A DNA stretch of 64,000 bases from an uncultured Chloroflexia bacterium (GCA_963797095.1 CAWCNY010000008.1:32001-96000); one strand, 5' to 3'. Positions 12,954 through 52,648 are shown, numbered from the stretch's first letter. Program-made: numbers and translations. Notes: generated by a model from the sequence alone, not told the origin.

Positions 12954-12954
12954 T

Positions 12955-22572: not shown

Positions 22573-22974
22573 TCACGCCTCGGCGGCAAGCCAGACAACC
22601 ACTCGCCAGTTGCTACGCCCCGCCATCCTGTCGAGGAGCGGCTGAATTCGAGGCTCGTGCTTGCCTGTCAGGGCGTGATAGCGCGCATCTACCTCCGCTA
22701 ACTCGGCTGGATTAAGCCAGGTGGGATGCTGGGGGTGCTCTGTGGCTGCCGCCACCTGCACCGCCCGCGACAGATTGGGGGGCAGCCCGCGCTCAGGCGC
22801 GACCGGTAGTTCAGTATTCGTTGCGCCTGTTCCCATAAGCAACGCTAACAGTACGGGCTCCGGTAACAGTACGAGCTCATCGTGGGCGTATAGGGATTCG
22901 ACGTAGAGATAGTGAGCGCCTGAGTTTTCTTCTTCAACATACACGTGGATCTCATAAGAATGAGCGCTAAGCAT
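22573..22974 (-). CDS. Hypothetical protein
   Basis: 133-aa ORF downstream of a regulon promoter; 'RGLP', 'HPTWL..EL', 'RVVVW' pattern. Confidence 0.6.
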   Translation of the reverse strand: MLSAHSYEIHVYVEEENSGAHYLYVESLYAHDELVLLPEPVLLALLMGTGATNTELPVAPERGLPPNLSRAVQVAAATEHPQHPTWLNPAELAEVDARYHALTGKHEPRIQPLLDRMAGRSNWRVVVWLAAEA

Positions 22975-23045
22975 AGCAACAACCTCTCAGGGACGACGGT
23001 AATACGACAAATGGTTTCGAAATTGCATATTGTCTTTCTATTGGG

Positions 23046-23091
23046 AGTATATAGGAGGAGACGTTGCAAGGGTCATGACCCAGGAGTGCTA
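23046..23091 (-). promoter_or_regulatory. Regulon promoter 2
   Basis: Sense TAGCACTCCTGGGTCATGA; ATGACC-17 bp-TATATA(CT). Confidence 0.65.
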
Positions 23092-23119
23092 ATGTTGGAA
23101 AGGAGTCGGCGGCGCAGCT

Positions 23120-23163
23120 TGGCACTTTTGGGCCATTACACGGGGCATAAGAGCGCATACAAT
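23120..23163 (+). promoter_or_regulatory. Regulon promoter 3 (P450)
   Basis: TGGCACTTTTGGGCCATTA; ATTACA-17 bp-TACAAT. Confidence 0.7.
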
Positions 23164-23499
23164 CTGTAGAGGAAGGGTCCGGACGGGACGCAAATCTGGT
23201 TGAGAAAAGCAGGCATTCTGACAATGGCATATGAACATCTACCGGCACCTTGCTCTGCACCTCCGTGAGTTCCATGAGAGGCGCGCAACACAGCCGGTAT
23301 GGCACGATGAGAAAACGGCAACCTGGCACATCTACCGGTATTCCGATGTGGAGCGCGTGCTGACCGACGCTGGGCATTTCGGAGAGGCACGCTTCTCCGG
23401 TTCCTATTTCTCGGCTCTCCCAACCGTCTCTCAGTCGCCAATGGACGCACAACGACACGCGGTCGTCCTCAGCCTAGATCTTGTCAGACCCTTCCTTAG

Positions 23500-24975
23500 C
23501 TCGACTTTGTACATTACCAACTCAATAGCAAACCGCGTAGGCCAGTCTCTCCACGTGTGAGCGTGGGACTAAACAGACATCAGGGTCTGTGGGGGCTGTC
23601 TGAAAAGTGAAGTTGCCCCACAAGTGCCGTCTGACTTGTGCCAGCACGTCCGAGAAGGTAGCCTCCCTCTTTTGGTACCAGGCAGTGCGCTGCACAGGCA
23701 CTTTTCCGTCTGGGTGTAGAGCCTTTCCAAACAGAGCCACCAGGCTGAACATGCCAAGCAAGCAGGGTGTGCTACGCTCAATCGCCAGGTCTGACCATTG
23801 TCGCTGGGTTTCCACTCCCAGGTGTGCTCGGCTCTCCTCAAACGTCACCTCGATAGTCCACCGCTTGATGAACCGGCTCACCACCTCCACTGCCTGCAAG
23901 CTCTGGTCAGTGCACAAGTAGGCTCGCGGTTCTCTGTTGCCTTGAGGGTCACGGGTGAGCACCCACCTGATTGGCAACACCGCAGAGCCAATCCGATACC
24001 ATACGCACGTGCCGCTTGCCACTTCAAGTTCTTGCTCCGATCCGTCATACCACCTTACCTTTATCTTCACCCACTCCGTGTTGGGGTCTGAGAGTACCTG
24101 GCTCAGTTTGGGCAAGGCTGCTCCTTTCACTCTCGGCCTGTCCATTGTGCCCGGTTTGCGAGGTGGCGCAGGTTCATACAAGGCGCATTCCCAACGCATT
24201 GGCGCTACAAGCGTGATCTGGTGCTTGACACAGCACAACCCCAATTCCAAGATCGAATAGGCAGTGTCGCCAACCAACGAAACAGATATGTCTGGTAGCC
24301 AGCGCCTTACCATCATCACCATCTGCTGGGCTATCTCTCCTACCGTCTTGTGCGCCTTACCCAATTGCTCACTTACTTTAGGTGTGGTGGCCAGCACTGA
24401 GAAGAAAGGAAGCGCCCATGCCCTGCTTGACCAGGGTACTTGCACTACCAGCATCATTACCACCCAACGCAACCCACTTGTACTGACCGACTGCTCTTTG
24501 CTCGATTGCACCGAGTCTCGGTAATGGCCGCGCTTGGAGATTTTGCGGCCCCATCTTCTTTCCAGCGTCTCGTCAATAGCAATCTCGACGGTTGCACCTG
24601 CCGCAACAAACGTATTGACCAGCAATTGGAGAAGGAGCCGGCTCAACATTAGGCAAGACCAGCTTGCACGGTTGAGCACCTGATGAAACAGGGTAAAGTC
24701 CTCACCATGTTGCAAGCCCATCTGCTTGAGGGCTGCCGTCACGGTCCGACGGCCTCTTGCCAGGATTGTGCCAACCACCAGCACGAGCGCTTTGTCCCAG
24801 GTTGGACGGGTGAAAGCTGGCCTGAAATGGAGCAGCACCTGTATAATCGGGTTGGGTAGGGACATCGCTTCTCTCCTTGTCGCAGATGGTGTTGTGGTAG
24901 ACTTCCATCTTACAACAAAGGGTCTGCGGGTCCCTTTACCCGTTTTCACCTCCTTTCATTTTGTACAAAGTCGAG
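23500..24975 (-). mobile_element. IS701-family insertion sequence
   Basis: 14-bp IRs CTCGACTTTGTACA / TGTACAAAGTCGAG; 5-bp TSD CTTAG (23495-99, 24976-80). Confidence 0.88.
23522..24865 (-). CDS. IS701-family DDE transposase
   Basis: 'IAIDETLERR', 'VGDTAY', 'RWTIEVTFEE...LGVET'; likely start MSLPNP. Confidence 0.88.
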   Translation of the reverse strand: MSLPNPIIQVLLHFRPAFTRPTWDKALVLVVGTILARGRRTVTAALKQMGLQHGEDFTLFHQVLNRASWSCLMLSRLLLQLLVNTFVAAGATVEIAIDETLERRWGRKISKRGHYRDSVQSSKEQSVSTSGLRWVVMMLVVQVPWSSRAWALPFFSVLATTPKVSEQLGKAHKTVGEIAQQMVMMVRRWLPDISVSLVGDTAYSILELGLCCVKHQITLVAPMRWECALYEPAPPRKPGTMDRPRVKGAALPKLSQVLSDPNTEWVKIKVRWYDGSEQELEVASGTCVWYRIGSAVLPIRWVLTRDPQGNREPRAYLCTDQSLQAVEVVSRFIKRWTIEVTFEESRAHLGVETQRQWSDLAIERSTPCLLGMFSLVALFGKALHPDGKVPVQRTAWYQKREATFSDVLAQVRRHLWGNFTFQTAPTDPDVCLVPRSHVERLAYAVCY

Positions 24976-37790: not shown

Positions 37791-40700
37791 CTATAACAAA
37801 CCGAGATCCTCAGCCCGGCGAACGGCCGCACGGCGGTTGTTCATCCCGAGCTTGGCGTAAATGTTATTGGTGTGAGTCCTCATGGTGTGCAGGGACACCA
37901 TTAATTCACGGGCAATTTCCGGTCCGGTCAATTCGGTCCTGAGCAGCCGCAGCACCTCAAGCTCACGCACGCTCAACGGCTCGACCAAACCCTGTCTGAC
38001 GGGCGTTCCATCCTGACCGTCCTGGCCCCCAGCTTTGCCGGCCTCCCCAATCTCCTGGGTCTCCCCAGTCTCCCCAAAAGCTGCAAGTAGTCGAAGGACA
38101 TAGCTCTGCGCGACCCTGCGTTTGCCGGCCTCTTCCAGCAGCACGGCCATTGGCATGCCTTCGTCCACGAAGATTCGGACGTAGCCCTCCGGCTCGCCCA
38201 GCGCCAGGGCGCGTTCCAGAGGCACAAGAGCCGCATCGATATCACCTTGCATCCGGTGGGCGAGAGAGAGCAACACCAGGATTTCGATGACGCTTCCCAT
38301 CCTATTACCTTCTTCCGCTGCCTGCAGAAGGCGCTCGAGGAGGCGCAGTGCCTCATGAATGGAGCGGTCTGCATGGTCGCCACCACCCCCACGGTGCTCT
38401 GCATGGTCGCCACGCTCGCTACGGTCGATACTGTACTGGGCCAGGAGCAGCCTCGCCAGGGTGATGTGCTCGAACTCGTGCAGGTAGCTCAGCTTGCCGA
38501 GAGCGTCCTCGACAGACAGGCCCTGTTCACGCACCCAGGCCGCTGCTTCACCCAGCATACCCTGCATACCCTGCATACCCTGCCTACCCTGTGTGACCCA
38601 CACCCGTGCCCGGAGTGCCGGTACTGGGCGCACATTTGGAAAGAAGCCACCCACATACAGGCGCTCTGCCTTCTGGAGCGCTTCGAGAGCGCCGTCCAGG
38701 TCTCCCTGGGCCTCCCTTATTCGAGACATGGCAACCCACCAGCGATAAGGGTTTTGCGGTAACCCGATCTGCGCACCCAATTCCTTGCTTCTCAGCAGGT
38801 ACTGCATGGCGGCATTCAGGTCGTTACGCTCACGGTGGATCTCGCTCATTCCTGCGTACATATCTACCGTTCCCCGGAGCACAGGCGCGCCCTGCTGCTC
38901 GGCAAACTGCGCCGCAAGCTGCAATGCCCGCTCATAGGTGCTAGCTGCCTCGCGGAGGCGACCCTGCGCAATCCGTATATCAGCCAGAGCGGTTGTTGGC
39001 CCGCCTGCGTCAGAGGCGTTCTCGGCCTTCCCGGCTTTCTGCACGCTCGCCATGCCCTCGGCAAGAGACCGGTGGGCCACGTCGAGGTCGCCGCTCGCCC
39101 AGGATGCGAGTCCCAGGAGCGCCGCTGCCGCTCCGCGTAGAAAATAGTCGTCCTCAGGTACCAACTCGAGCACCCGCCGGGCGTATGTCACGGTCTCCGG
39201 CACATGGCCCAGAGCCATGGCGTAGCCGGCACGGTACATAGCGATCGCACCCGGAAGACGGCGAAACTCCTTTTCGTCTATGACGACCATCTCGACCATC
39301 TCACCTGCTGAGTCAGCCGATGGCACTTCCGCTTGCTCACGCATAATGAGCGGGGTGCTGTCAGCAGCTTGCGCTGGGCCGCGAACTACGGTCGTGCCCG
39401 GAGTGTTCACGGTGTCCTGGGTGTCCTGGGTGTCCAGCCACCGTTCGGCATCGCGCAATCGAGCCTCAACGCCTTCGAGTTCGCCGCCGGCCAGTAACGC
39501 CCCAGCATAACCAACGCTGAGCACGGGTCTGAAGTGGACCAACTCATCGGGCAGCGCCTTGAACCAGCCCAGCATCGTGGCCTCCTGGCTACTTCTGCGC
39601 ATGGCCGGCACTGCCAACTCGACCAGGTTCGCTGCTCGCTCGAAATCCCTGGCAGCCAGCGCATGGCGGATCGCACTGGCCATGGCATCGGGCGCCGAAC
39701 CGTTATGCTCGTACCACTCGCTCGCGCGCCGGTGCAGTATAGATACCTGATCGGTCGTCTCAGCCGTTTCTGCAATCAAATGGGTATGGAGAACTTCGGC
39801 AAAGAGGTGGTGGTAGCGATACCACTGGCGCTTGTCATCAAGCGGAACGACAAAGAAGTTGCCTCTCTCCAATGCCATCAGCTGTATATTACTTCCTTCC
39901 TGCCCGGTAACGGCATCGCATAGGGAGCCACTTAACCGGTCGAGAATGGAGATCTGCAGCAAGAAGCTGCGGATGTTCTCGGGCTGGTGCTGCAATACCT
40001 CTTCGACCAGATAGTCCACGATGTAACGGTGGTCTCCGGCGAACGCCCGGATGAAGGCGGGGATATCCTGCTCCTCGCGGCCCCGCATGGAGAGTGCTGC
40101 TAATTGCAGCCCGGCAATCCAGCCTTCAGTGCGCCTTTCCAGAGCGCCGATATCGTCTTCCGAAAGGTTCAGACCCATCGCCTGATTGAAAAATGCCGCG
40201 GTTTCAGAGGGGGTGAAGCGCAAGTCGGCGGCTCGCAACTCGGCCAGTTGGCCTCTCGCACGCAGCCGTGCCAGGGGTAGCTGGGGATCCTCACGGCTGG
40301 CGATGACCAGGTGCATGTGTGGCGGCAGATGGTCGAGCACAAAGGTGATGGCCCTGTCAATGGCCGCGTTGTCAATAACATGGTAGTCATCCATGACAAG
40401 CACGGAATCGGCCGAAAGGGTGGCGATTTCATTGAGCAGAGAAGTCAAGACTACTTCCACCTGAGGAGGCTGGGATGACTGGGAGGACTGAAGCATACTC
40501 AACAGTCTTTCTCCCATATCGGGCGCAACGGTCCGTAAAGCAGCCATGAGATATGTCAGAAAGCGTGCAGGATCGCTATCCTCTTCATCCAGCGACAGCC
40601 AGGCCACTTTGCGACCACCGGGGTTGGAAGTCGCCCATGCACTGACCAGGGTGGACTTGCCGGAGCCTGCGGGGGCCGAGATGAGCGTCAGCTTACGGTG

Positions 40701-40799
40701 CAGACCCTCGTTGAGCCGCTCCATTAACCGGGGACGAAGTACCATCTCAGGGAGAGGTGGTGGGATATATAATTTGGTGGACAAGATTGGTGAAGCCAT
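37791..40799 (-). CDS. Second MalT-like LuxR-family regulator
   Basis: APAGSGKST, MDDYH, TEGWIAGLQL, WYRYHHLF, C-terminal LuxR HTH. Confidence 0.93.
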   Translation of the reverse strand: MASPILSTKLYIPPPLPEMVLRPRLMERLNEGLHRKLTLISAPAGSGKSTLVSAWATSNPGGRKVAWLSLDEEDSDPARFLTYLMAALRTVAPDMGERLLSMLQSSQSSQPPQVEVVLTSLLNEIATLSADSVLVMDDYHVIDNAAIDRAITFVLDHLPPHMHLVIASREDPQLPLARLRARGQLAELRAADLRFTPSETAAFFNQAMGLNLSEDDIGALERRTEGWIAGLQLAALSMRGREEQDIPAFIRAFAGDHRYIVDYLVEEVLQHQPENIRSFLLQISILDRLSGSLCDAVTGQEGSNIQLMALERGNFFVVPLDDKRQWYRYHHLFAEVLHTHLIAETAETTDQVSILHRRASEWYEHNGSAPDAMASAIRHALAARDFERAANLVELAVPAMRRSSQEATMLGWFKALPDELVHFRPVLSVGYAGALLAGGELEGVEARLRDAERWLDTQDTQDTVNTPGTTVVRGPAQAADSTPLIMREQAEVPSADSAGEMVEMVVIDEKEFRRLPGAIAMYRAGYAMALGHVPETVTYARRVLELVPEDDYFLRGAAAALLGLASWASGDLDVAHRSLAEGMASVQKAGKAENASDAGGPTTALADIRIAQGRLREAASTYERALQLAAQFAEQQGAPVLRGTVDMYAGMSEIHRERNDLNAAMQYLLRSKELGAQIGLPQNPYRWWVAMSRIREAQGDLDGALEALQKAERLYVGGFFPNVRPVPALRARVWVTQGRQGMQGMQGMLGEAAAWVREQGLSVEDALGKLSYLHEFEHITLARLLLAQYSIDRSERGDHAEHRGGGGDHADRSIHEALRLLERLLQAAEEGNRMGSVIEILVLLSLAHRMQGDIDAALVPLERALALGEPEGYVRIFVDEGMPMAVLLEEAGKRRVAQSYVLRLLAAFGETGETQEIGEAGKAGGQDGQDGTPVRQGLVEPLSVRELEVLRLLRTELTGPEIARELMVSLHTMRTHTNNIYAKLGMNNRRAAVRRAEDLGLL

Positions 40800-40950: not shown

Positions 40951-41004
40951 CAATAAAGAGTACAAGGAGCGCACAGTCAATAAAGAGTACAAGGAGCGCA
41001 CAGT
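40951..41004. repeat. Perfect 27-bp tandem duplication
   Basis: CAATAAAGAGTACAAGGAGCGCACAGT x2 upstream of the regulator. Confidence 0.92.
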
Positions 41005-41375
41005 ATAGTAAAGACTCTGACTATTGAGCTACCGGACAACATCCACGCGTTTGGCGGGCGTTCCGGCATTCGGGCTTTTTGTTTGGGTTTGACGGCCAGA
41101 CTCCAAAATCTGTCCAAATCATGCGGTCCGCCAAACTCTCGCCAGGCACGTACCGGCTCACTTTTGCAGCCACCCGCATTCCCGGCGAAGCGATAGACGG
41201 TCGCTTCTCGTTTCCAGATCCGATGAATGACCGAGGAATAAGCATGAGGGTAGAGTGATATAAATGCTGATATACGGAGTTTGCATATCACGGAATCTGC
41301 AGTTATGAACGAGGGATATGCCAGGTCTCGAGCACACCGGGCGATTACTCATGGAGGGTACGAAAGGTAAGGGCA

Positions 41376-41630
41376 ATGGAAATCACTCTCACCGGTGACA
41401 TTGAGAAAGCATTGCTAGCTGAGGCCAAAGAGCATGGAACCTCACCGGAACAATTGGCTCTAGATAGCCTGCGCCGCGAATTCGCGTATACTCTGCAGGG
41501 CAACAACTCGTCAGATGGTCTGTCGGCTCAGGGAAGCGACGGAGCTCCGGGGACGCTGGCTGAATATCTCGCTGATTATGTCGGGATTGTGCACAGTCGC
41601 GAGCATGTGCAGGTCGCCCGGCATCGCTGA
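41376..41630 (+). CDS. Orphan antitoxin-like small protein
   Basis: 'MEITLTGDIEKALLAEAKEHGTSPEQL...TLAEYLADYVG' RHH-like; no toxin follows. Confidence 0.5.
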   Translation: MEITLTGDIEKALLAEAKEHGTSPEQLALDSLRREFAYTLQGNNSSDGLSAQGSDGAPGTLAEYLADYVGIVHSREHVQVARHR

Positions 41631-41650
41631 GAGCGTAGAGATTACACCGC

Positions 41651-42348
41651 ATGGATATCTATATTGCCGACAACTTCCGGCAAACTTACCCACATGCAAG
41701 CATCGGAATACTGGCGATGGAGGGCGTCGATAATCCCCCGGATAGCACCGCGCTTGCTGAGTACGTGCAAGAGTTGGAGGCCGACCTTCGTAGCCGGTGG
41801 GCTGGTGCTGCCAGGGCTGACTTGAACAGGCTTCCTGAATTTGAGGCTTATCGCAACTACTATAAGCGCTTCGACAAGACATACCATGTCCAGGGCAGTT
41901 CGAGTCGGTCGCGCTCAAGGGAAAGACGCTCCGCAGTAGCGGCTCACTCGTCCTGGCGATGTTCGCCGCCGAACTGCACAACCGGCTTCTCACAGCCGGG
42001 CACGATCTTGACGCGATCGAAGGTGGCATCAGGGTCGACGTGGCACGGGGCGGCGAGCAGTACATAGGCCTCGGAGGTCGCGACCTGACCCTGCAAGCAG
42101 GCGATATGCATATGCGGGACGAGGCGGGAATCATTTCCAGCGTGCTGTATGGTCCCGACAATCGGACCCAGGTCAGAGCGAACACCCAGCGTGTGGTCTT
42201 CTGCGTGTACGCACCCGCCGGCATCCAATCAGAGTCGGTCGAGAGCCACCTGGCTGATGTCACACGCAATGTGCGACTTGTTGTGCCAAATGCCTCTGTT
42301 ATTCAGCAGCAAGTCTACCCTTCCACACATCAAGCCGGAGCCCTATAG
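41651..42348 (+). pseudogene. B3/B4 (PheT-related) tRNA-editing domain protein, 1-nt frameshift near 41893
   Basis: 'AYRNYYKRF.KTYHV' joins 'QFESVALKG...TAGHDLD...GDM.MRD...SSVLYGPD.RT' if GGG is read as GGGG. Confidence 0.8.
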
Positions 42349-42434
42349 CTGTTCAACTTTTGGCTATCGACGGAAGTCAACAACCCTGCTGACACCGGCG
42401 ATATCAGGGCAAAACAATCTATCGTGCCTGAAGT

Positions 42435-43579
42435 GATACCGCTGGCGAACCCATGCTCAAAGGCCACCTGCGGCGGAAACAGGCATAAGTGCGAGTCCCA
42501 GTCTGCTTGCCGGTGCCGCAAATGCCGATATGCATGTGCGAGCCATCGGACGATCCTCGAACCACTCCACTAATCGCAGCAAGTTTATCCCCACTGCTAT
42601 CAAGATGTTTTGCAGAGCAGTCTTCGCCGCTCCGATATAACGGCTCTGGCGTAGCCCGCCAACCCTCACACCTCGACTGAGCGTGCCTTCTACCCCTGCC
42701 CGTCGCTTGTACTCTTCCTTGAATTGAGTGCTCTGCTGCTCCACTCATTGCGCCAATATAGCAAAATGCTCTGCTCTTGGTCGCAATGTCAGCCCTCTTC
42801 CTGCCCGTGCCGATTTGGTACATTCTTGCCGTGCTGCACAACCCCGGCATGTTGCCGCTGCGAAATGCACGTGGATCGCCTCCTTACCGCGGGCTGTATG
42901 CGCTGGCGTCCAACTACTGCTTTGTTTGCCTGCTGGACATGTTACCTTCTGCCCCTCCCAGTCCACTACGAAACAGTGCGGCGAATACCCCTTACCAGCC
43001 TGCGTTTGCCAGCTATTGTCATCAGGTAGCGGTCCCACCAATCGCACCTCGTACTGCTCCTTGCTCTCTGTCAGTCGTGCCGCGTCAACATATCCGGCAT
43101 CAACCAAGTGTTCTGCTGGTAATAGATCGCGCTCTTTCAACGCCTCGTGAATCGGCTCTAACGCGGCTTCATCGGTGGCGGTAGCCGTGGTAGTTTCCAC
43201 ATGAGTTATCAGATGTGGACCATCGTCATCACACGTCTCGGTGACATGCACCTTGTAGCCGATCCAACGATGCTCTCTTTTCTTGCCGGTGCGTGCCTCC
43301 ACATCATACGGAGAGATAATTAGCTGAGGCATGGTCATAATTCATTTTTCACGCGTGGCGACGGATCAAATAGTGAGCCGAACCGCGTATTTTGGCTCTA
43401 TTCAGACCACATCGTGAGCGTCAAATTGTGCGTAATTGGTATTTATGACCATGCCTCAATTAGCTGCCTAACAGGTGGCAGATCACCCGCTTCCCGCCAA
43501 TGGATGGATCCATCCTCGGCAGGCGCATAAAATTGCTGTAGCCACACCTTTCGTAGAACCTGCACCTGCGGCAACAGTC
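42435..43579 (-). mobile_element. IS1182-family element remnant (5'-truncated, internal stop, MITE insertion)
   Basis: 'VLRKVWLQQF...SPYDVEAR...WIGYKVHVTETC...DAGY...CPAGK...YKRRAGVEGTLS'; TGA at 42745-47; end TTCGCCAGCGGTATC. Confidence 0.85.
43326..43457. mobile_element. 132-bp MITE
   Basis: 15-bp IRs GAGGCATGGTCATAA / TTATGACCATGCCTC; 8-bp TSD AATTAGCT (43318-25, 43458-65); excision restores the transposase frame. Confidence 0.88.
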
Positions 43580-43956: not shown

Positions 43957-46206
43957 TCAATCCTTCAATACAATGCGATGTAATTCCTCCACAAGGGCCT
44001 CGGAAGCACGTTCCATCCGCAAGTCCGCTACGGCACGAATAAAGCGCGGCACATCAAACTGCTCGACCACGGCCCGGCGTCGCAGCTCCACAGGAACCAG
44101 GTGGTGATATGCTCCGAGCGCCAGCATAGGCTCGTAAGCGCGATAATGCTCACGAAGGTATCGTTCGACCTGTGCAGGCGTAATTGTGGGGATGGAGCGA
44201 GGCTCGTCCCGCAACAGCAAGCACAACCCGACCTGAGACGCCGGCGCTATTGGCAAGGTATAAGCCAGGAGGTCCAGGATCGCCCGCCCGTAGACATCTC
44301 CCAACCAGTGGTACCATATCCACCCGCCGTCGTTCGGGACCAGCGGCGCTGTCCCGGGAGAAAGCCCAAGCTGGGACGGAAATCGCCTGGCAAGGTCGTA
44401 ACTCAGGGTCTGCCTTGTCGAGAGATATCGCAAGGGTGTCGAGTAGGCCGCCTCTGCGCTTTCTCCCGCCTTGTTATCTCGATTGACCGACACCCACAGC
44501 GACTCCCCATCGTACCATTCGACGTTCAGAGGGCGTCCTTCCAGGGTCAGTATGTCCCCATCAAACCCCTGGCGATCAATGCTTGCAACCACACGCTGGC
44601 TATCGCGATCGCGGATCTTGATGGGCGCACCTCCCATCTCTATATTACTGTGCAGGCTCAACGTGCTGTACTCAGCCGCCTGCAGATCGACCAACCGGTT
44701 CAGGCGCTCGCCCGCACGCCATTCCCCAGGCCGGCCACTCGTCAGGTATCCCAGGGCCTGCAGAGTGCCTAAGAGAAGGCGCAAGTCTGTGGTTGAAAGC
44801 ATTCCCTCGAACAAACGGGACAGGGGATTGAGGCGTACAGCGCCTGTGGGACTTTGTTTCAAGAGGCTGAATATCTGCTGGATAGCAACTGATGGGCGGA
44901 AGCTAATCGCTGCCGTCTGTGCCTCAGTCCAGTCCGCTGCCTCTGAGGCCTCGGAGATATCAGGGAGATCGGTAGCACTGTTGACAGCATCGAGTATCGC
45001 GCCGAAAGTGATGCGTTCCAGCGGCGTGCGATAGAAGCAGGCTACGCGGGCGAATTTCCGGCGTCGATTGGCACGCCCTACTCGCTGGACGAACGAGTGG
45101 GTGCTGCCGGGCGGGCCGATGAGCAGCGTCACATCAATGTTGCCCACGTCTATGCCAAGCTCAAGAGTGCTGCTGGCGAAGCAGAGGGCCGCTTCGGCTT
45201 GCGCGAACCCGTGCTCAATCTCGCGCCGCCTCTCCCAATCGAGATTGGAGTAGTGCACGTACACGGCGTCTCCGAAGGGTGACCCTCCACTCCGAGCGTT
45301 GCGTATGGCGGCGGCATACCTCTCTACCTCGGCGCGTGTGTTGCAGAAAGCCAGGGCCTTTCTCCAGCCGCGCTCACGGAAAGTGCTCAGGTAGTCGAGC
45401 AGCGCTCCGACGGTGTCTGCTTCGAGAGCGATTAGCTCGGACTCAATAGCTCTCGCGCTCGTCAGATTCCCCTGGTTCCCTTGCTCGCCCGTAGTTTGCA
45501 GTCGTGTCACCTCGACCACTCGTGCATTCTCGAAATATCGCCCGGCAACCCCAGCCGGTTCCGAGAGCGTCGCCGACAAAGCTACCACTTGCACGTGTGC
45601 ACCGGTCGCCTCGGTTGTATCACCGGCACCGGCATCACCCGCTTTGGCTGCGTGAGCGCGCACCTCTCGCAGGCGATTGAGCAGGACGCGCAACTGGTCG
45701 CCGCGCACCGTGCCGTCGGACGTGTGCAGTTCGTCCAGCACTACCGCCCGCACTCTCGCCAGCGACTTCGTCCGGTTTGACATGAGAGCGTCCAGCGACT
45801 CGGGCGTGGTCAACAGAATGTCGGCCGGGCGCTCAGGGTCGAAGGTATTGAAGTCGTGCGTCTTGACGGCACATGACACCCGCAAGGTTTCCAAAGGCAC
45901 GTGGATGCGTGCCCACAGGTCACTTATCAGGGCTCGCGTGGGCAGAAGATAAAGGATAGTCAAGCCGGGAGTGACGCGCTCTGCCGGAAGGTATCGCTCG
46001 ATCAGGGGGGCGAGGGCGGCTTCCGTTTTACCGCTGGCGGTCGGCGCGCAAAGGATGACGTTCTCTCCCTCCAGTACAGAGGGGATAGAGGCAAGCTGGG
46101 CGGGAGTGAAGTTGCCGTGCCTGCGAAAGAAGGCTCCCCACGTGCGTGGCAAGGCAGCCTTTAGCGCGTGCCCATAAGTCCGAGTTTGCTTTGGAGAAGC
46201 TTTCAA
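43957..46206 (-). CDS. Lhr-like SF2 DEAH helicase (BrxHI-like)
   Basis: Q motif TPAQ, APTASGKT, PTRAL, TTPESL, DELH, SAT, FCNTR, STLELGIDVG, QRVGRANRR. Confidence 0.88.
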   Translation of the reverse strand: MKASPKQTRTYGHALKAALPRTWGAFFRRHGNFTPAQLASIPSVLEGENVILCAPTASGKTEAALAPLIERYLPAERVTPGLTILYLLPTRALISDLWARIHVPLETLRVSCAVKTHDFNTFDPERPADILLTTPESLDALMSNRTKSLARVRAVVLDELHTSDGTVRGDQLRVLLNRLREVRAHAAKAGDAGAGDTTEATGAHVQVVALSATLSEPAGVAGRYFENARVVEVTRLQTTGEQGNQGNLTSARAIESELIALEADTVGALLDYLSTFRERGWRKALAFCNTRAEVERYAAAIRNARSGGSPFGDAVYVHYSNLDWERRREIEHGFAQAEAALCFASSTLELGIDVGNIDVTLLIGPPGSTHSFVQRVGRANRRRKFARVACFYRTPLERITFGAILDAVNSATDLPDISEASEAADWTEAQTAAISFRPSVAIQQIFSLLKQSPTGAVRLNPLSRLFEGMLSTTDLRLLLGTLQALGYLTSGRPGEWRAGERLNRLVDLQAAEYSTLSLHSNIEMGGAPIKIRDRDSQRVVASIDRQGFDGDILTLEGRPLNVEWYDGESLWVSVNRDNKAGESAEAAYSTPLRYLSTRQTLSYDLARRFPSQLGLSPGTAPLVPNDGGWIWYHWLGDVYGRAILDLLAYTLPIAPASQVGLCLLLRDEPRSIPTITPAQVERYLREHYRAYEPMLALGAYHHLVPVELRRRAVVEQFDVPRFIRAVADLRMERASEALVEELHRIVLKD

Positions 46207-46347
46207 GCGTCACGCTCCCGGTCAGCGATCCGACACGTGGCTCAGGCTTTCCTCTCCGGGCCTAAGCAGTGAATTATAGCAGATTGGCGGATTGCTCTAT
46301 TCAGGCAGAGGGTCTACAATGAGGGCGGATAATGAAAGGAGAGGAGA

Positions 46348-46650
46348 ATGATATCTACAACAGAGCCGGTTGATATAGGTAAGCTTATCTCCAGGGTGCC
46401 GGAAATCTGGCATGGTTTGCCCATTATTGCGGGTACCCGGATAACGGTGGCGGGCATCATTAGCTTGTATGACGAAGGAGTAACAGCAGAGGACATAGCA
46501 CATCGCAAGCACTTGACACTGGCCCAGGTGTATGCTGCCCTGGCTTACTACCATGCCAACCGGCAGCAGATAGAGACAGAAAACACTAAGGAACAGGCTG
46601 AATACGACAAGCTGGCGGAAGGGGCACAGCGCGCTGAGAGCCGTACATGA
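46348..46650 (+). CDS. DUF433-family antitoxin
   Basis: 'PIIAGTRITV...LTLAQVYAALAYYHAN'; RBS GAGGAG. Confidence 0.9.
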   Translation: MISTTEPVDIGKLISRVPEIWHGLPIIAGTRITVAGIISLYDEGVTAEDIAHRKHLTLAQVYAALAYYHANRQQIETENTKEQAEYDKLAEGAQRAESRT

Positions 46651-47006
46651 GGCTACGCCTCTACCTTGACGAAGATGCAATGGATGACGGGTTTAGGGAC
46701 GCTCTTCGCGCTCAAGGAATTGATGTAAGAACGGCTGGAGAAGAAGGAACCGAAGGCTACTCTGACGAGCAACAACTGCTTTATGCAAAGGCTTTGGGTA
46801 GGGTAATATACAGTTTCAACCGGGGAGGCTTTATGGCTTTGCACACTCGGTTTCTCACAGAGGGTACGTCCCACGGCGGGATAATTCTTGCGCCTCAGAG
46901 ACGCTTTTCAGTGGGTGAACAATTGCGCCGACTCTTGTTGATCATTGATGCCAAACAGGCTGAGGAGATGGAAGACCAGGTCATATTTCTCAGCAATTGG
47001 GGGTAG
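46647..47006 (+). CDS. DUF5615 PIN-like toxin
   Basis: 'LYLDEDAMD', 'SDEQQL', 'HGGII'; ATGA overlap with DUF433; the usual N..DF reads NRGGF. Confidence 0.85.
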   Translation: MRLRLYLDEDAMDDGFRDALRAQGIDVRTAGEEGTEGYSDEQQLLYAKALGRVIYSFNRGGFMALHTRFLTEGTSHGGIILAPQRRFSVGEQLRRLLLIIDAKQAEEMEDQVIFLSNWG

Positions 47007-47023
47007 TTTGCAGGGCGCACACC

Positions 47024-47269
47024 CTAAGCCATTGCCTTTGATGCGAACTTGGTCTCGTCCACCTCCACGAATCCTGCCTGGGTGGCGCTCATCGGAGGCA
47101 ACGGTTGCCCGCGCTCAAGAGCTACCTCAAAGTAGAGTTCGAGTGCTTCCTGCATGTTCTCCAAAGTGCCGGCAACAGTGTCGCCGACGGTGCCCACGCC
47201 TGGCACATCCGGAGCATAGGCTGAATACCCGTCCAGCGTCTTCTCTATTACCACGGGATATTTGTGCGT
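47024..47269 (-). CDS. hicB: HicB-family antitoxin (expected start codon reads ACG)
   Basis: RBS AGGAGG, then ACG CAC AAA TAT CCC GTG = (M)HKYPVVIEK...YSAYAPDVPG..TVGDT. Confidence 0.8.
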   Translation of the reverse strand, partial: THKYPVVIEKTLDGYSAYAPDVPGVGTVGDTVAGTLENMQEALELYFEVALERGQPLPPMSATQAGFVEVDETKFASKAMA

Positions 47270-47301
47270 ACCTGCCTCCTGAATGTTGGCACCTTTTCGG
47301 A

Positions 47302-47487
47302 CTACTCGCCAAGCTTCGCAATATCAGGTAATATCTTCAGTGTGCAAGTTGCCAGTTCTTTATTCTGCCTGGGGATGACTAACTGGCTCGGCTTCGCTGG
47401 GTGAACATAGACATCGTGCTTCTTGCCATGCCGATAAAGTACCCAACCGTCTGCCTTCACTTTGCGAACCAACTCACTCGCTTTCAC
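47302..47487 (-). CDS. hicA: HicA-family toxin
   Basis: 'ELVRKVKADGW...HGKKH..Y.HP...VIPR'. Confidence 0.75.
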   Translation of the reverse strand: MKASELVRKVKADGWVLYRHGKKHDVYVHPAKPSQLVIPRQNKELATCTLKILPDIAKLGE

Positions 47488-47490
47488 TTA

Positions 47491-48987
47491 TTATAACTTT
47501 AACCCGCGCTTCAACTCCTCCAGCATCTCGCTCGGCGGGTAGTCGGGGTGGAGGTAGAGCAGGTCGCACACGGTTACAGCAGTGCGGATCAGTTGGCGCA
47601 GGTTGATGCGATGCTGCGAGAGGGCGCGTGACAGCATCCCAGGCACGGTGGAGGATACCTCAGTGTAGCGTTCAGGCGTGGAAGACCCGTTCTGATCATA
47701 GTCATAGGCCAGCGCGTGGTAGCGCTGCAGCGTGCCGAAGAACTCTCGGATATCCTTCTCGATGAAGCGGTCGTCCAGCCGCACAATCTGGGAGGGGGCT
47801 AGCCACGAGCCTACAGGCATCCGGTCAGCGCTTTCTGTAAGGGCGAATAGAAAGAGGAGATGCGGCTCGGATACGTAGCTTACAGGGTATTCGGAACGGG
47901 GATTGTCCGGGATCGTGCGGGCATCGATGCGCCCGTTGTTCAGGCCCAGCGCCGACACGGTCATCGCCTTGAAGAAGGAGTCGGCCCGCTCTCGCTGCGT
48001 CGCCCGCAGCAACGAGTAGTGCTCGGACTCGTCTATCAACACCCCAAGCCCGCTGTATCCGAGCAGGGTCGCCAGCGTGCTGATACCGGTGAGCATGTAG
48101 CTGTACTGGCGCGCCGTTTCGCGGGTCACGTACAGGGGCGGTGGCTTTTTCAGACAGCTTCTCATTTCTGCCTGCGGTTTAGCCTGCCCGCTCAACCACT
48201 GCACGATCTGGTCGAAGGCCAGCTGGCTGGAACAGTCCTGCAAAGCCAGCAGCGCCGACGCCAGGGGACAGTTCTTCGGCTCGCGTGGGCACGCCTCAAC
48301 GAGCCTGGCAATCACCGAGGGGTTGTCAAGCGCCTTGTTGATCAGGGGAAGAAGGCCGCGCTCCTCGGTGTCTGGGTAGCGCAGTGAGGTTACCAGTGCC
48401 TCGTAAATCTTGTGGGCTTTGCCGGGAGGTACCTCCACCAGATCGAGGCTGGCCGAGGCAACCAGGAAGTTCTCGCGCAGGCCGCGCCTGGCCGCAAGCT
48501 CGATGAAGTGGCTCTTGCCGAAGCCGTAATCGCCTATCACGGCAAGCGCGTCGCCGCTGCGCTCGCGGCTCCTTGCGAGCGCCCTATCCAGCGTCACCTG
48601 CTCGGCTTCCAGCCCTATGGTGAGGGTCTCGGCGTCCTGCACGGGTACCACACCCACGCGCAGCGCCTCCAGTGTTTGCTGGGCGCGGAATTGATCGCCT
48701 TCCAGCACCATAGTGCGCGCAGGCCTGAATTGGCCTTCGGCCAAGAACCGATGTGCCTTCATCGCAGGCGCATGGGGCGACTCGTCGAACTCTCTTGAAG
48801 GCAAGCGGAAACGTCTGCCGGACTCGAACTGAACCTCCCATTCGAACCCGCCCATGAAGGTTCGCAGGAGCGTGCCAGGGCCGAACTGCGGGTGATGCAC
48901 CCGGTTGGTTTCTTTGGCCTCTACAGAGCCTGCAGGCTCTGCAGGGTCCATGAGGTCCATACGGTCGCGGTTGTCCAATTGATCCAA
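47491..48987 (-). CDS. DUF2791/BrxD-like P-loop ATPase with an N-terminal SH3-like domain
   Basis: 'EALRVGVVP', Walker A GDYGFGKS, Walker B VLIDESE; N-terminal 'RVHHPQFGPG...VQF'. Confidence 0.8.
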   Translation of the reverse strand: MDQLDNRDRMDLMDPAEPAGSVEAKETNRVHHPQFGPGTLLRTFMGGFEWEVQFESGRRFRLPSREFDESPHAPAMKAHRFLAEGQFRPARTMVLEGDQFRAQQTLEALRVGVVPVQDAETLTIGLEAEQVTLDRALARSRERSGDALAVIGDYGFGKSHFIELAARRGLRENFLVASASLDLVEVPPGKAHKIYEALVTSLRYPDTEERGLLPLINKALDNPSVIARLVEACPREPKNCPLASALLALQDCSSQLAFDQIVQWLSGQAKPQAEMRSCLKKPPPLYVTRETARQYSYMLTGISTLATLLGYSGLGVLIDESEHYSLLRATQRERADSFFKAMTVSALGLNNGRIDARTIPDNPRSEYPVSYVSEPHLLFLFALTESADRMPVGSWLAPSQIVRLDDRFIEKDIREFFGTLQRYHALAYDYDQNGSSTPERYTEVSSTVPGMLSRALSQHRINLRQLIRTAVTVCDLLYLHPDYPPSEMLEELKRGLKL

Positions 48988-49001
48988 TAAGGGCCTCCGA
49001 C

Positions 49002-50300
49002 CTAATATGGACGCTGCTGCTCGTCGGCCAGCAGGTCGAGGGCGTTACTCTCCCCTCTGATGCGAGCGTCGGCGTACTCCGAGTTGATGGCTGTCTGCCC
49101 CTCCTCTTTCTGGCGGAACCACTCTGTTACGAGCGCTTTCACGAAGAGGCGGCGGTGACTTACCGCCAGGTAAGAGTTGACCGCCGCTTCCGCCAGCACG
49201 CGGATGTTCTGGCTCTGCATCTCTCCATCAAGCTTCACGTCGTACGCCGTCTCGAAGATTGGCATGAGGCGGTAGCCGATCTGCACCAGCAACTCCTCGT
49301 CGGGCATGTCGAGGTGGTCCAGGTCGATCTGGGGGCTGAAAGGGTTGGTGCGAGAGAAGTAGTCGGCGGCCTGCACCCTCTGCTGCAGAGCGGGGTACTT
49401 TGGCACGACCGTATGGAGGAAATCGGGTGGCACCGCGTACATGAAGAGTGCGCCCGGAAGGTCCTCGCGGCAGCGGTCGATCACCTCGCGCAGGTTATCG
49501 GTGGCGGTCTTCTCGGCCTTGCCGCCGATGCTCAGCATCCGGTCGCCTTCGTCGAAGAGGAGAGCGAGCCCGGTGTAGCCCAGGGCGCGTACCGCCTGGC
49601 ACAGGGAGCGGAGCATCTTGAAAGCGTTGTTGCGGTTGATCTTCTCGGTCACGCCGATTGAGCGCAGGTCGCGCATATCTTCGGGGGTGACTTCCTCGCC
49701 CTGAAACCAGCGCTCTAGCGAATCTTCGCGGCGCTCCTGCCCTCGGAGGAGGGCGGTGAAATACCCCTGCACGGCTTTGTGGAAGCTGAGGCTATCTATG
49801 TGAGTTGAGGCGATAGTGCTCAGGAAAGCGCGCACTTCGGGGATCTCTTCCGCGCCCTCGTCCTGCAAGTCGAGGCCGTGCGGGCTGACAATGCGCCGCA
49901 GGGTGCCTTCGAGAAAGCGCCCCAGGCCGTACTCGTCTTCGGCCAGCCCGCCCAATTCATGCCATACTATGGATGACGCCACTGCCCCATACACCCGCCT
50001 CTGGTCGTCGTATGGGCTTTCCTTGGGACTGAGGTCCACTTTGCTCACGGCGAAGTCGCGCTGCCAGGCGCGGTCGCGCACACAGTAGAGGAAGTGCGAC
50101 TTGCCGCTGCCGTAGTCGCCCACCACCAGCTTGAACACGGCACCACCATCGGCCAGGTATGAACCGAGGTAATGGGTGTCGATGGCGTTGAGGAGCGATT
50201 CATTGCCCACGTTGTAGTAGCTTACGCCTCTGGGCATGGGAGTGCCGGATTGCCCCAATGTCTCGATGATCTGGCGGGCCAGGCGCGGTTCAGGTAACAT
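49002..50300 (-). CDS. DUF2791/BrxD-like P-loop ATPase
   Basis: 'FKLVVGDYGSGKSHFL', 'LGYTGLALLFDEG', 'NLREVID', 'YPALQQR'. Confidence 0.82.
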   Translation of the reverse strand: MLPEPRLARQIIETLGQSGTPMPRGVSYYNVGNESLLNAIDTHYLGSYLADGGAVFKLVVGDYGSGKSHFLYCVRDRAWQRDFAVSKVDLSPKESPYDDQRRVYGAVASSIVWHELGGLAEDEYGLGRFLEGTLRRIVSPHGLDLQDEGAEEIPEVRAFLSTIASTHIDSLSFHKAVQGYFTALLRGQERREDSLERWFQGEEVTPEDMRDLRSIGVTEKINRNNAFKMLRSLCQAVRALGYTGLALLFDEGDRMLSIGGKAEKTATDNLREVIDRCREDLPGALFMYAVPPDFLHTVVPKYPALQQRVQAADYFSRTNPFSPQIDLDHLDMPDEELLVQIGYRLMPIFETAYDVKLDGEMQSQNIRVLAEAAVNSYLAVSHRRLFVKALVTEWFRQKEEGQTAINSEYADARIRGESNALDLLADEQQRPY

Positions 50301-50392
50301 AATTCGTCCTCCGGTGTGAAACTCCTATCTCGGAGTTGCGCCAAATGTGCAGTTATCATCAAGGCGCTCATAGCGAAGTGGTACAGGGGCAT

Positions 50393-50683
50393 TTAGCGGC
50401 GGTCCTCGATGACCATTTGCGACATAGGCTTGCCTTTGACCTTTATTGGTCTGCGGTTCCCCTTTGGCTCAACGTGCGATTGGTGCTTGATTTCCAGGAT
50501 CAAACCTCTTTCAAGTAGGTGTTGCCTGAAAGCCTCTTCTGCTGCCTCAAGTGCTCCGGGCAACATGAACTCATCGACGGCAGTAGGTACAACCGTGACC
50601 TCGACCTTCGTGCCGTCTTGAAGGTGCACGTCCTCGGGTAGCAATACGACATTGTCCTTTACAACGCCTTCATATACGGTCAT
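50393..50683 (-). CDS. Orphan antitoxin (DUF104/AbrB-like) followed by a PIN-start remnant
   Basis: 'YEGVVKDNVVLLPE...GTKVEV'; tail 'GKPMSQMVIEDRR'; the next ATG reads MPLYHFAMSAL (decayed 'YFDTSAL'). Confidence 0.65.
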   Translation of the reverse strand: MTVYEGVVKDNVVLLPEDVHLQDGTKVEVTVVPTAVDEFMLPGALEAAEEAFRQHLLERGLILEIKHQSHVEPKGNRRPIKVKGKPMSQMVIEDRR

Positions 50684-50692
50684 GAAGCCTCC

Positions 50693-51761
50693 TTACTCCC
50701 TCACAAACTCGACGTCCGCGATGTACCGCCCATCGTAAGGCGTGTCTCCTTCCACAATCCACATGCTCTTTGTGGGGCTGTCGGTCTGCGATTTGACGGC
50801 GCTGTGGGCCTTCACGACGTGACTATCATATACGAGGCGCTGGCGGCTGGAGAACTCGTAGAAGTCGTATTCGAATTGCGCCCGCAAGTAATCGGTGAAA
50901 GTGTGCTTGCTCGGCTGGCTGGCGAAGGCTCGGCCCTGGCGCAGCAGCACCATCTCTATGTAGCAGTCCACGATATTCACCCGTGCCGATCCCGATGACT
51001 GTGTCTGCGTGCCTCGTTTGCGGCGGGCAGTCTGGTACGCTTCATGGAACTGGGCAATCCAGGCTTTGCCATCCTGGTTCCGTCCCATTATAGCCTTTGA
51101 TGCGCTCGCGTAGGCTTTTATGGTGGCTTCCACAGTGATGGGGGCATGGGGCACCACGACGTCCTTACCGTAACGCAGCACTACGAAGCGTTTGGCGAAG
51201 TTGGCCTCAAGCTCGAAGCGCCCGATCTCGAACCGAGGTGCGCGCCCTCCTATATGTATCCCCTGTTCCGCCAGGGCCGAGCGGAGCCTGTGGCCGAATT
51301 CGTCGCCGAGTACACGCTGGGCAACATCCAGCTCTTCGCGCAGAAGGGGGAGCGTCTCGCGCACGTTCTCTTGCTTTGCCAATTCCAGTGTGGCAAGAGC
51401 TTTGTCCAGCCGCACCACGTCCACAGGCTCGGTGCGTAGCGCCGACGACGCATCTTTCAGCGCGCCGGTGAGGGTGGCCAGAACTCTTTAGCTCGCGCCG
51501 TATGTCGGGCAGCAGCGGGTCCACGGCATCTTCTTTCAGCCTGCTCGCAGAGAACGCTTCTTGAGCACCATTGAGGCCGTCAGCGGAAACGCCTGAATTC
51601 AGCATACTGAGGTCTCGCAACGCCTTCTGCGCTTTGCTATGGGCGTTCGTGACTCCCTTGAATGCCGCCTGCAATCCGGCAACAGCTTTCTGCTGCTGAG
51701 AATAGGTCTCACGCAACGTATCGAGTTGGGTAACTAGGGTTTCGTTGGTCATGATGATCAC
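50693..51761 (-). CDS. Coiled-coil protein with a globular C-terminal domain, +1 frameshift near 51484 (first gene of the ATPase-helicase operon)
   Basis: Two overlapping ORFs join as '...RRELK-LATLTGALKDASSALRTEPVDVVRLDK...' after removing one base. Confidence 0.7.
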
Positions 51762-51984
51762 TTACCTGGCAATAAATATTCGAAGTGTCAAGCAGCAGCT
51801 ATTTTACCTTATTAGAGTGAGACAGCCAATCGAGAGTGCGTGGCGTCTGAGCACTTCTCCGGGGCTGCTTCTTGCGTGATCCTGGACGCGAGGCCAGCTT
51901 GCTGCAAGTTGAGGGCCATAACGGGGGTCACAACGGAGATCCTGTCCTGTTCCTCCGCTTTCGGCGGGATTGACCTGACCTGTG

Positions 51985-52263
51985 TCAGTAGTGGAACCGC
52001 GCCTGCAGGAAATCGATCCTATCCTCGCGCACCAGGTAGACGAGACGGTGCTCTTGCGTGATTCGCCTCGACCAGACGTTTGGCCCCAGATACTTCAACG
52101 GCACAGGCTTCCCTATGCCTTCGAAAGGATCTCGCAACACAACCTCCACCAGGCTTAGCACTCTCAACGCTGTGCGGCGATCGGTTTCTACCCGGTGGCG
52201 TTCAGCCCAATGGCGTAGGTCTTCTCGAAACTCCGGCTGAAAGACCGCCTGACGCTCACTCAC
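51985..52263 (-). CDS. yoeB: Txe/YoeB-family toxin
   Basis: 'RDPFEGIGKP.PLK...WSRRITQEHRLVY...QARFHY'. Confidence 0.9.
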   Translation of the reverse strand: MSERQAVFQPEFREDLRHWAERHRVETDRRTALRVLSLVEVVLRDPFEGIGKPVPLKYLGPNVWSRRITQEHRLVYLVREDRIDFLQARFHY

Positions 52264-52648
52264 GTTCCGGTGTGTCCTGGTTATCCTGCTCCGAAGTAGC
52301 TCGCTTTGATCTCGGCTCCGATTCCAGCCCCATCTCTTTGCGAAGTTCGTCCACCGTGCCCGGCTTCTCGCTCCCCTCAAGGACACGACTCAAGGCTGCC
52401 ACCAGCCTTTGTGCGTTATGAGGCGAACTTAACAGGTGCGCGGTTTCCATCAGGCTCTCCAACTCCTCCGCCGACACTATGGCGACGTCTCTGGCGCTGC
52501 CGCCTTTGCCGCCTTTGCCGCCTTTGCCGCCTTTGCGCCTGCGCACGATGATAATTTCACGGTCATCGACAGCCCTATCAAAATAGGATGCCAGATGCTC
52601 CCGGGCCTCTGTGTAGGTAGTTTCCACTGTCAACTTCACGTCCCTCAT
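52256..52648 (-). CDS. yefM: YefM-family antitoxin
   Basis: 'TYTEAREHLA', 'ESLMETAHLLSSPHNAQRL'; contains (GGK)n from a 9-bp repeat. Confidence 0.9.
   Translation of the reverse strand: MRDVKLTVETTYTEAREHLASYFDRAVDDREIIIVRRRKGGKGGKGGKGGSARDVAIVSAEELESLMETAHLLSSPHNAQRLVAALSRVLEGSEKPGTVDELRKEMGLESEPRSKRATSEQDNQDTPERE

Follow-up and report, generated by a model that had tools for sequence, protein, structure and literature searches.

A conserved four-gene cassette of two BrxC/BrxD-type ATPases and an Lhr-like helicase, and its possible role in defence

Can the ATPase and helicase families known from BREX (bacteriophage exclusion) make up a system of their own? The question is raised by a stretch of 64,000 nucleotides (nt) from an uncultured Chloroflexia bacterium (GCA_963797095.1 CAWCNY010000008.1:32001-96000), hereafter the window, in which four co-oriented genes lie on the minus strand at 43957-51752 in the order X, ATPase A, ATPase B, helicase. 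The four open reading frames (ORFs) are found where an original prediction had placed them; that prediction read them as an autonomous ATPase–helicase defence system. We find that the four-gene cassette is a real, widely conserved and self-contained unit. What it does is a matter of interpretation, and our preferred reading, held with somewhat better than even confidence, is that it represents an unnamed stand-alone system resembling Shango and the BrxD–BrxHI pair, probably directed against phages or plasmids.

Conservation and autonomy of the cassette

Relatives of the locus were gathered in two sets. The first came from a scan of a genome collection with an alignment of 20 X relatives, which returned 26 loci, all of them in Chloroflexota metagenome-assembled genomes. 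Gene order was read by tblastn with the window proteins, and a locus was considered testable for the next gene if it extended at least 400 nt beyond the preceding one. ATPase A follows X in all 26 loci, ATPase B follows A in 22 of 23, and the helicase follows ATPase B in 18 of 20. The exception at the second step is L031, in which A is fused to a helicase fragment; at the third step, L014 and L035 have no helicase in that place. At the fused locus (L031 11085-13280), ATPase A is truncated at residue 342 and the helicase fragment comes after it. The order X–A–B–helicase thus recurs in Chloroflexota without the inserts seen in the window, and the genes abut or overlap by 4 nt.

The second, distant set consists of 80 metagenome contigs, including some near-duplicates, which were fetched on X alone. 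Because the query was a 7-sequence subcluster, these loci sample one branch of the distant X family. Here, gene order was determined with local hidden Markov models (HMMs) run over six-frame translations. In all 67 testable loci X is followed by ATPase A; of the 60 loci testable for the next step, 56 continue with B, and of the 49 testable for the last, 47 continue with the helicase. Complete cassettes number 42. Pfam bears out the cassette families in 22 of the metagenome loci; 18 of these encode a full PF10923 protein of ~410 amino acids (aa), a PF10923 protein matched in its N-terminal part only, and a DEAD/Helicase_C protein of ~530 aa. As the same families occur in the same order in dozens of independent loci, the arrangement is more than chance, and the co-conservation of the four genes elsewhere, without inserts, agrees with what had been predicted. 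At one further locus (L059 10082-12082), fusion or deletion joins the N-terminus of ATPase B in frame to the helicase (666 aa).

Beyond Chloroflexota, the taxonomic range is given by two plasmids and by ESM Atlas labels (Chloroflexota, Myxococcota). On plasmid pDESTI.01 (27 kb) of Desulfomonile tiedjei DSM 6799 the cassette lies at 10215-15641 of NC_018026.1, where the first gene is annotated as a hypothetical protein, both ATPases as 'BREX system ATP-binding domain-containing' and the last gene as a DEAD/DEAH helicase of 701 aa. The cassette is also borne by plasmid3 of Aulosira laxa NIES-50, whose X aligns with the family profile (hhalign 98.8%, E 1e-16). Among 401 sampled Chloroflexota genomes, three contain the cassette, the source genome included, and one of the three (G355) has a distant form in which X precedes two PF10923 genes. 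A 577-aa frame with no Pfam match stands after both ATPases of G355 (L036 188-1921), in place of a recognisable helicase; since this DNA is high in G+C, the call of the frame is uncertain.

The cassette had been described as lacking a BREX core and TerB, and wider searches support its autonomy. Neither PglZ nor TerB was detected in the whole source genome, which is 93% complete, and the only strong PF10923 matches there are the window cassette and a second copy of it. BREX core genes and TerB are likewise absent from 136 flanking ORFs of 14 Chloroflexota loci and from 129 flanking ORFs of 25 metagenome loci. The conjugative plasmid3 of Aulosira (AP018310.1) allows a direct comparison, as its cassette (18893-24287) comes directly after a BREX operon (PglZ, BrxD, DEAD/DEAH helicase), the two together spanning 2651-24287. 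PF10923 scores 434 bits with the BrxD of this operon, compared with 165 bits for ATPase A and 49 bits for ATPase B of the cassette. The two stand side by side with separate BrxD and helicase genes, and BREX and the cassette are therefore distinct modules that are able to adjoin. The BREX-like operon itself has the type-6 order (three small genes, two large genes, PglZ, BrxD, helicase), with PglZ and BrxD verified.

As to whether the cassette has been described before, no named system in PADLOC-DB v2.0.0 matches the four-gene set, and our literature search returned no publication on a DUF2791 plus helicase cassette or on a Shango-like or BrxD-like stand-alone one. RefSeq labels the ATPases 'BREX system ATP-binding domain-containing protein' and X 'hypothetical protein'. 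With no X model in PADLOC and no match in the literature, the cassette is unnamed as far as these searches reach. The genes are co-conserved, are not always situated in BREX or Ter clusters and do not correspond to a named system in PADLOC-DB v2.0.0, the three computational points on which the original prediction could have failed.

The four cassette proteins

In the window, X is spread over two overlapping frames (51207-51761 and 50693-51424). Both parts of the first gene, predicted at 51761-50693, are thus present, but the gene is split, and its likely start is the ATG at 51752 (MTNETL..., matching relatives) rather than the GTG at 51761. Intact relatives read RRELKSLATLTGALKDA across the window break, with ...KS/G-LATLTGAL... 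at the frameshift site. An alignment of the DNA with a paralogous copy places an extra T at 51482/51483, where window X has TT and the paralog a single base. The window stretch is contained in no public sequencing run (the best share of sampled words was 0.11) and no RNA run is listed; the frameshift may be either a mutation or an assembly error.

Intact X proteins are 344-352 aa long in the Chloroflexota clade and ~280 aa elsewhere. A protein collection clustered at 90% yields 336 relatives at E<=1e-3; for the 120 that are listed, no Pfam domain is on record. Searching 1.84 billion representatives with an X profile produced 518 relatives, 212 of them at E<=1e-10; the distant ones are mostly ~280 aa long, without the first ~80 residues. 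In 20 sampled distant relatives no Pfam family scored above its cut-off, save in P0213 and P0232, where the X region is joined to another domain (Rho_N in the former, phosphoglucomutase domains in the latter). The two window pieces have no match in Pfam, PADLOC or NCBIfam, and Pfam gives none for the intact relative P0001. PADLOC-DB v2.0.0, candidate systems included, has no model for X. Its SngA model matched none of 99 family members, and weak matches of coiled-coil type were seen in at most four of the 99.

The fold of X was modelled on P0001, which is 91% identical, with 99 aligned relatives. The model has a predicted local distance difference test (pLDDT) score of 96.2 and a predicted template modelling (pTM) score of 0.87, and comprises a helical bundle (residues 1-162) and an alpha/beta domain (residues 165-352). 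In an earlier fold, built from 20 close relatives, the C-terminal half was poor and the Foldseek search uninformative. All of the most conserved residues (Q272, F276, P280, Y288, R290, F293, D296 and W331) map to the alpha/beta domain, and to judge by sequence they form no apparent nuclease-like or other catalytic motif. The proposed structural check of the first protein returned a confident fold, but Foldseek found no match to it in the PDB at E<=0.001. A wide, re-ranked VIA-align search gave only generic helical bundles over residues 1-148, the best of which, CHMP3, has a Z of 10.9, under the level deemed meaningful for helical bundles. When residues 160-352 were searched against the ESM Atlas, only unnamed clusters of the same kind were found, labelled Chloroflexota and Myxococcota.

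The two ATPases belong to the same broad family yet differ from each other, in agreement with the original prediction. ATPase A, whose Walker A motif lies at residue 61, matches PF10923 (BrxC_BrxD) over positions 3-394 of 414 with 152.2 bits (2.7e-44). ATPase B, with its motif at residue 152 of the 498-aa frame and a probable start at the ATG at 48960, matches the same family with 94.8 bits (7e-27), mainly in the N-terminal third of the model; both pass the gathering score of 22.2 bits. The catalytic residues are strictly retained in each: Walker A K67 and Walker B D250-E251 show no variation among 54 aligned relatives of ATPase A, nor do K149 and D310-E311 among 49 aligned relatives of ATPase B. 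In PADLOC, BrxD scores above SngB both for ATPase A (119 bits, 5.3e-35, versus 93 bits, 6.3e-27) and for ATPase B (69 bits, 1.1e-19, versus 42 bits, 1.5e-11). The NCBIfam BREX_BrxD equivalog (NF033438, cut-off 350 bits) is reached by neither, the scores being 121.1 for A and 70.5 for B. A search of the PDB with ATPase A returned nothing. Complex prediction for X, ATPase A and the Tudor segment of ATPase B gave a score of 0.00, which is evidence neither way.

ATPase B had been noted to begin with an SH3-like region, and this is supported. Profile–profile comparison links its N-terminal extension to a Tudor/SH3-like domain of PcrA/UvrD type at approximately residues 28-70. Of 48 ATPase B N-terminal segments, five score above the cut-off of PF21196 (PcrA_UvrD_tudor) and about six others match it below that level; the five passing segments, which are among 44 distant relatives, score 37-45 bits against a gathering score of 23.9. 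Some N-terminal segments also match CarD_TRCF_RID. The window segment aligns with the relatives that carry PF21196 (hhalign 98.1%, E 1.4e-13). In a PDB search with a profile of the ATPase B N-terminal segments, seven of the eight rows listed (E up to 10) are UvrD or PcrA chains, matched in their C-terminal Tudor region at a marginal E of 0.007-1.2. The PcrA Tudor domain binds RNA polymerase, for which H681, W684, K712 and L714 are required (PMC5397179). ATPase B keeps an invariant His and an aromatic residue at the positions aligned with H681 and W684; the region of K712 and L714 is not alignable. Judged by sequence, the likeness thus extends to the His and aromatic residues used in RNA polymerase binding. 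The placement differs, as the Tudor domain closes a superfamily 1 (SF1) helicase in PcrA and UvrD, whereas it opens an AAA+ ATPase here.

The helicase carries the motifs TASGKT, DELH (residue 158), SAT (211) and QRVGR (374), so that its motif II is DELH and not the DEAH originally assigned. Pfam recognises DEAD (7.6e-30) and Helicase_C (1.4e-12), and in PADLOC the BrxHI model (201 bits, 9.5e-60) scores above SngC (183 bits, 2.9e-54, 505 of 720 positions). The best solved relative of the core is the Mycobacterium smegmatis Lhr core (5v9x, 1.1e-21), followed by YprA and Hel308 (7lhl, 6znp). The cassette helicase resembles Lhr, YprA (MrfA) and Hel308 in its core but differs from them in its genomic partners. 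For the C-terminal half of the window protein Pfam gives no match; WH_Lhr appears below cut-off (E 1.8e-4) in one helicase relative, and feature-based look-alikes of this half are clusters in which 17-26% of members have WHD_Lhr. All NCBIfam equivalog scores of the helicase are far under their cut-offs.

The window copy, its inserts and its neighbours

The features of the locus are collected in Table 1. ATPase A and ATPase B are separated by 14 nt. The genes inserted between the four had all been taken for toxin–antitoxin (TA) genes. Those between ATPase B and the helicase are indeed of TA type, but for the pair of small ORFs that lies between X and ATPase A no match was obtained with Pfam, PADLOC or NCBIfam, and a TA assignment is unsupported there. 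In relatives X directly adjoins ATPase A, and it is these ORFs that separate them in the window copy. By Pfam, type II TA families are represented in adjacent small genes by HicA/HicB-like, DUF433/DUF5615 and, upstream, YoeB/Phd_YefM. The promoter-like site ahead of X is a lead only, because such sites are just as frequent in the region as shuffled sequence leads one to expect; the scan for promoters and terminators as a whole stayed at chance. Given the frameshift in X and the four to six inserted small genes, the window copy of the cassette may be inactive.

Table 1. Coordinates of the cassette genes, inserts and adjoining features in the window
Feature	Position	Strand	Description
Promoter-like site	51801-51829	-	~50 nt upstream of X; promoter/terminator scan
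Gene X	50693-51752	-	No family assigned; split by +1 frameshift
Small ORF, insert	50393-50683	-	96 aa; between X and ATPase A; no family assigned
Small ORF, insert	50222-50392	-	56 aa; overlaps ATPase A start; no family assigned
ATPase A	49002-50300	-	432 aa; full-length DUF2791/BrxC_BrxD AAA+ ATPase, Walker A GDYGSGKS
ATPase B	47491-48987	-	498 aa; divergent DUF2791 ATPase, GDYGFGKS, N-terminal Tudor/SH3-like domain
HicA toxin gene, insert	47302-47487	-	PF07927 at 6.1e-9
HicB-like antitoxin gene, insert	47024-47254	-	PF15919 at 7.9e-9
DUF5615 gene, insert	46647-47006	+	PF18480 at 2.3e-10
DUF433 gene, insert	46348-46650	+	PF04255 at 1.1e-16
Helicase	43957-46206	-	749 aa; Lhr-like (Ski2-like) superfamily 2 DExH helicase
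YoeB toxin/Phd_YefM antitoxin pair	51985-52648		Directly upstream of X
DDE transposase fragment	42745-43338		Among family-less ORFs (40977-43338) between the MalT-like regulator and the helicase
MalT-like STAND regulator	37791-40799		1002 aa; AAA_16 + MalT TPR + LuxR/GerE HTH; ~3 kb downstream of the helicase

Small selfish genes have landed repeatedly between ATPase B and the helicase in different Chloroflexota genomes. This junction holds HicAB plus DUF433/DUF5615 in the window (46348-47487) and, elsewhere, a Uma2 endonuclease (L010 5396-6019), a MazF/PemK toxin (L033 14424-14789) or DUF2442 (L032 14038-14274). On the other side of the helicase, the content of 40977-43338 suggests a rearranged, insertion-rich region.

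Decayed or truncated copies of the cassette were also seen. One is a second copy on the same contig, outside the window and ~50 kb upstream, at ~19.7-30.2 kb (L009 5669-16245). Its X has an internal stop and is followed by an inserted DUF5678 gene and an aspartyl-protease-like ORF; a frameshift interrupts its ATPase A, and its ATPase B, which is intact, shares 85% identity with that of the window. Beyond B there is no Lhr-like helicase, and an ADP-ribosylglycohydrolase fragment and a 1491-aa PD-(D/E)XK plus SF1 helicase protein are found instead.

In the distant family, 11 of 25 metagenome loci have domains of restriction, CRISPR, TA or mobile elements no more than 6 kb from the cassette. The neighbours include a type I/IIG methylase (L042), GmrSD (L080), Cas1/Cas2/Csa3 (L096), DUF499 (L102), an SNF2-NOV_C protein with PIN (L055), HepT (L059) and HEPN/MNT (L107, L105), and AbiEi/AbiEii lie near the cassette in D. 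tiedjei. Some neighbours appear to share an operon with the cassette helicase, namely a 1179-aa SF1 helicase (L042 9454-12993), a PLD-family nuclease that overlaps the helicase stop (L072 6857-7417), and a 194-aa ORF followed by the DUF499 protein (L102 10830-14372). A divergently oriented 764-aa protein with a Phage_portal domain is encoded just upstream of the cassette on three related metagenome contigs (L047 4468-6762, L048 1955-4249, L049 4899-7190), two of which also have TnpB-like genes near the cassette.

Possible function of the cassette

The cassette can be compared with two known arrangements. According to a 2026 BREX survey (PMC12839542), which describes the pair within BREX, BrxD is tightly linked to BrxHI, belongs to the ORC/Cdc6-type AAA+ ATPases and is proposed to load or activate the BrxHI helicase. 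These two families are common to BREX types 2/6 and the cassette, but the cassette is without the BREX core, its ATPases score far under the BrxD equivalog cut-off, and X and ATPase B are added. Shango combines a TerB-like protein, an ATPase and a helicase, and displays modest anti-phage activity (10.1101/2022.11.11.516204, 10.1101/2022.05.11.491447). Like the cassette, it stands alone as an operon in which a small first protein is combined with a DUF2791-type ATPase and an Lhr-like helicase. However, Shango has three genes (SngA, SngB and SngC), whereas the cassette has four, with two different ATPases, one of which carries a Tudor domain. SngA is a TerB protein, while X has no TerB domain recognisable by sequence and its fold searches are filled by helical bundles. 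Finally, the SngB and SngC models do match the cassette proteins, but the BrxD and BrxHI models score higher.

A defence role, which we regard as fairly probable, is suggested by the resemblance of the families to those of defence modules, the patchy occurrence of the cassette, its presence on plasmids and neighbourhoods that are in part defence-like. By analogy with BrxD, the two ATPases would assemble into a hetero-oligomer and load or activate the Lhr-like helicase on nucleic acid. The Tudor domain of ATPase B could tether this machinery either to RNA polymerase or to some partner in which a similar motif occurs, and X might be a non-enzymatic sensor or regulator occupying the place of TerB in Shango. 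The helicase would then act on transcribed or replicating foreign DNA, and protection against phages or plasmids would follow. Given that the set contains no nuclease, the effector may be the helicase itself or a nuclease supplied by the host or by a neighbouring gene.

A number of observations weigh against defence as the function. Neither a nuclease nor any other effector is recognisable in the four proteins. ATPase A is 82-84% identical where RpoB is 60-75% identical, with no drop as the RpoB distance grows (Table 2). Defence genes usually evolve fast, and the conservation of ATPase A is unlike that. It would also fit a conserved cellular role, and could result from recent transfer or from very strong constraint; taken together, rarity and high conservation agree with exchange inside the phylum under a strong constraint of unspecified nature. 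The flanks in the Chloroflexota clade are mostly metabolic, with TA, HNH or transposase neighbours in only three of 14 loci, and the neighbour counts are descriptive, as there was no control set with which to test for enrichment. X relatives were found in no phage record and on no more than two plasmids, in searches that were pattern- or BLAST-limited (queries P0168 and P0001 for plasmids and phages, A4 and A1 for the IMG/VR scans). As for the Tudor domain, neither the window segment nor three Chloroflexota relatives matched PF21196 at E<=0.1, and a PDB profile search with the Chloroflexota Tudor alignment returned nothing. Moreover, a Tudor domain and an Lhr-like helicase are hallmarks of transcription-coupled repair and R-loop handling too.

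Table 2. Identity to the window proteins; X was compared over the C-terminal frame (243 aa)
Genome (locus)	RpoB	ATPase A	ATPase B	Helicase	X
G403 (L034)	75%	82%	78%	65%	73% (110 aa only)
G402 (L017)	64%	83%	70%	58%	67%
G401 (L012)	60%	84%	74%	57%	74%
G404 (L028)	60%	83%	71%	58%	62%

Several of these points would be accounted for if the cassette were an accessory genome-maintenance module, in which an RNA-polymerase-tethered ATPase pair brings the Lhr-like helicase to stalled transcription or R-loops. A Tudor domain of PcrA/UvrD/Mfd type, a helicase most similar to Lhr, YprA and Hel308, an ATPase A conserved above RpoB, metabolic flanks in 11 of 14 Chloroflexota loci and the lack of an effector domain all favour it. 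We nevertheless consider it unlikely, since the cassette is present in only three of 401 sampled Chloroflexota genomes, travels on plasmids, occurs in decayed or truncated copies, has neighbours such as restriction–modification genes, GmrSD, Cas1/Cas2, DUF499, PLD and AbiE, and has BrxD/SngB and BrxHI/SngC as its nearest named families. A divergent Shango, with X as a TerB domain diverged past sequence recognition, is in our view improbable. The gene logic is alike, with a DUF2791-type ATPase and an Lhr-like helicase behind a small first protein; PADLOC finds SngB and SngC, X folds as a helical bundle in its N-terminal part, and the structure searches are compatible with TerB. Yet no TerB or SngA match was obtained for X, either by Pfam (window pieces, 20 distant relatives and P0001) or by PADLOC (0 of 99), and X has an extra conserved alpha/beta domain that contains the most conserved residues of the family. 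In addition, there are two ATPases, one of them Tudor-bearing, and SngB scores below BrxD for both.

We think it very improbable that the cassette is a module by which a mobile element is replicated or maintained, built of ORC/Cdc6-like initiator ATPases and a helicase. The classification of BrxD as an ORC/Cdc6-type AAA+ ATPase (PMC12839542) would suit such a module, as would the D. tiedjei plasmid, on which the cassette accounts for four of the 23 genes and adjoins ParA. Most loci, on the other hand, are chromosomal, the Pfam matches in their flanks include no integrase, relaxase or replication-initiator family, and no relatives were found in IMG/VR or phage records with the queries used. The idea that the cassette is a stranded remnant of BREX type 2 or 6 that has lost its core is scarcely credible: although PF10923 and BrxHI-like matches are present and one locus adjoins BREX, the source genome has no PglZ, the ATPases reach 121 and 70.5 bits where the BrxD cut-off is 350, and X and the second ATPase are conserved and foreign to BREX. 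The Aulosira plasmid bears a true BrxD–BrxHI pair beside the cassette, and the counts contradict such an origin.

Our preferred reading therefore remains that of an unnamed stand-alone defence system. A more general model, which we put forward tentatively and regard as rather unlikely in its full form, is that a DUF2791 ATPase and an Lhr-like helicase constitute a portable engine with interchangeable front ends (the BREX core, TerB or X). In the X class, a heteromeric pair of ORC/Cdc6-like ATPases would be anchored to RNA polymerase by the Tudor domain and would load the helicase on transcribed foreign DNA or R-loops under the control of X. If this model is true, the cassette would be an immune system that senses invasion through transcription.

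Shango and the BrxD–BrxHI pair are validated or accepted components of defence, and the cassette adds a third context for these families, one that is compact and widespread. It also offers two new handles, a Tudor domain of the RNA-polymerase-binding type and a first protein that folds confidently and belongs to no known family. As the cassette is present on small plasmids of cultured, non-pathogenic strains (D. tiedjei and Aulosira laxa), it lends itself directly to cloning and testing. Should it protect against phages or plasmids, current annotation tools would either miss the system or pick up only stray 'BREX system ATP-binding' genes; should it give no such protection, a general role of the DUF2791–Lhr pair may come to light.

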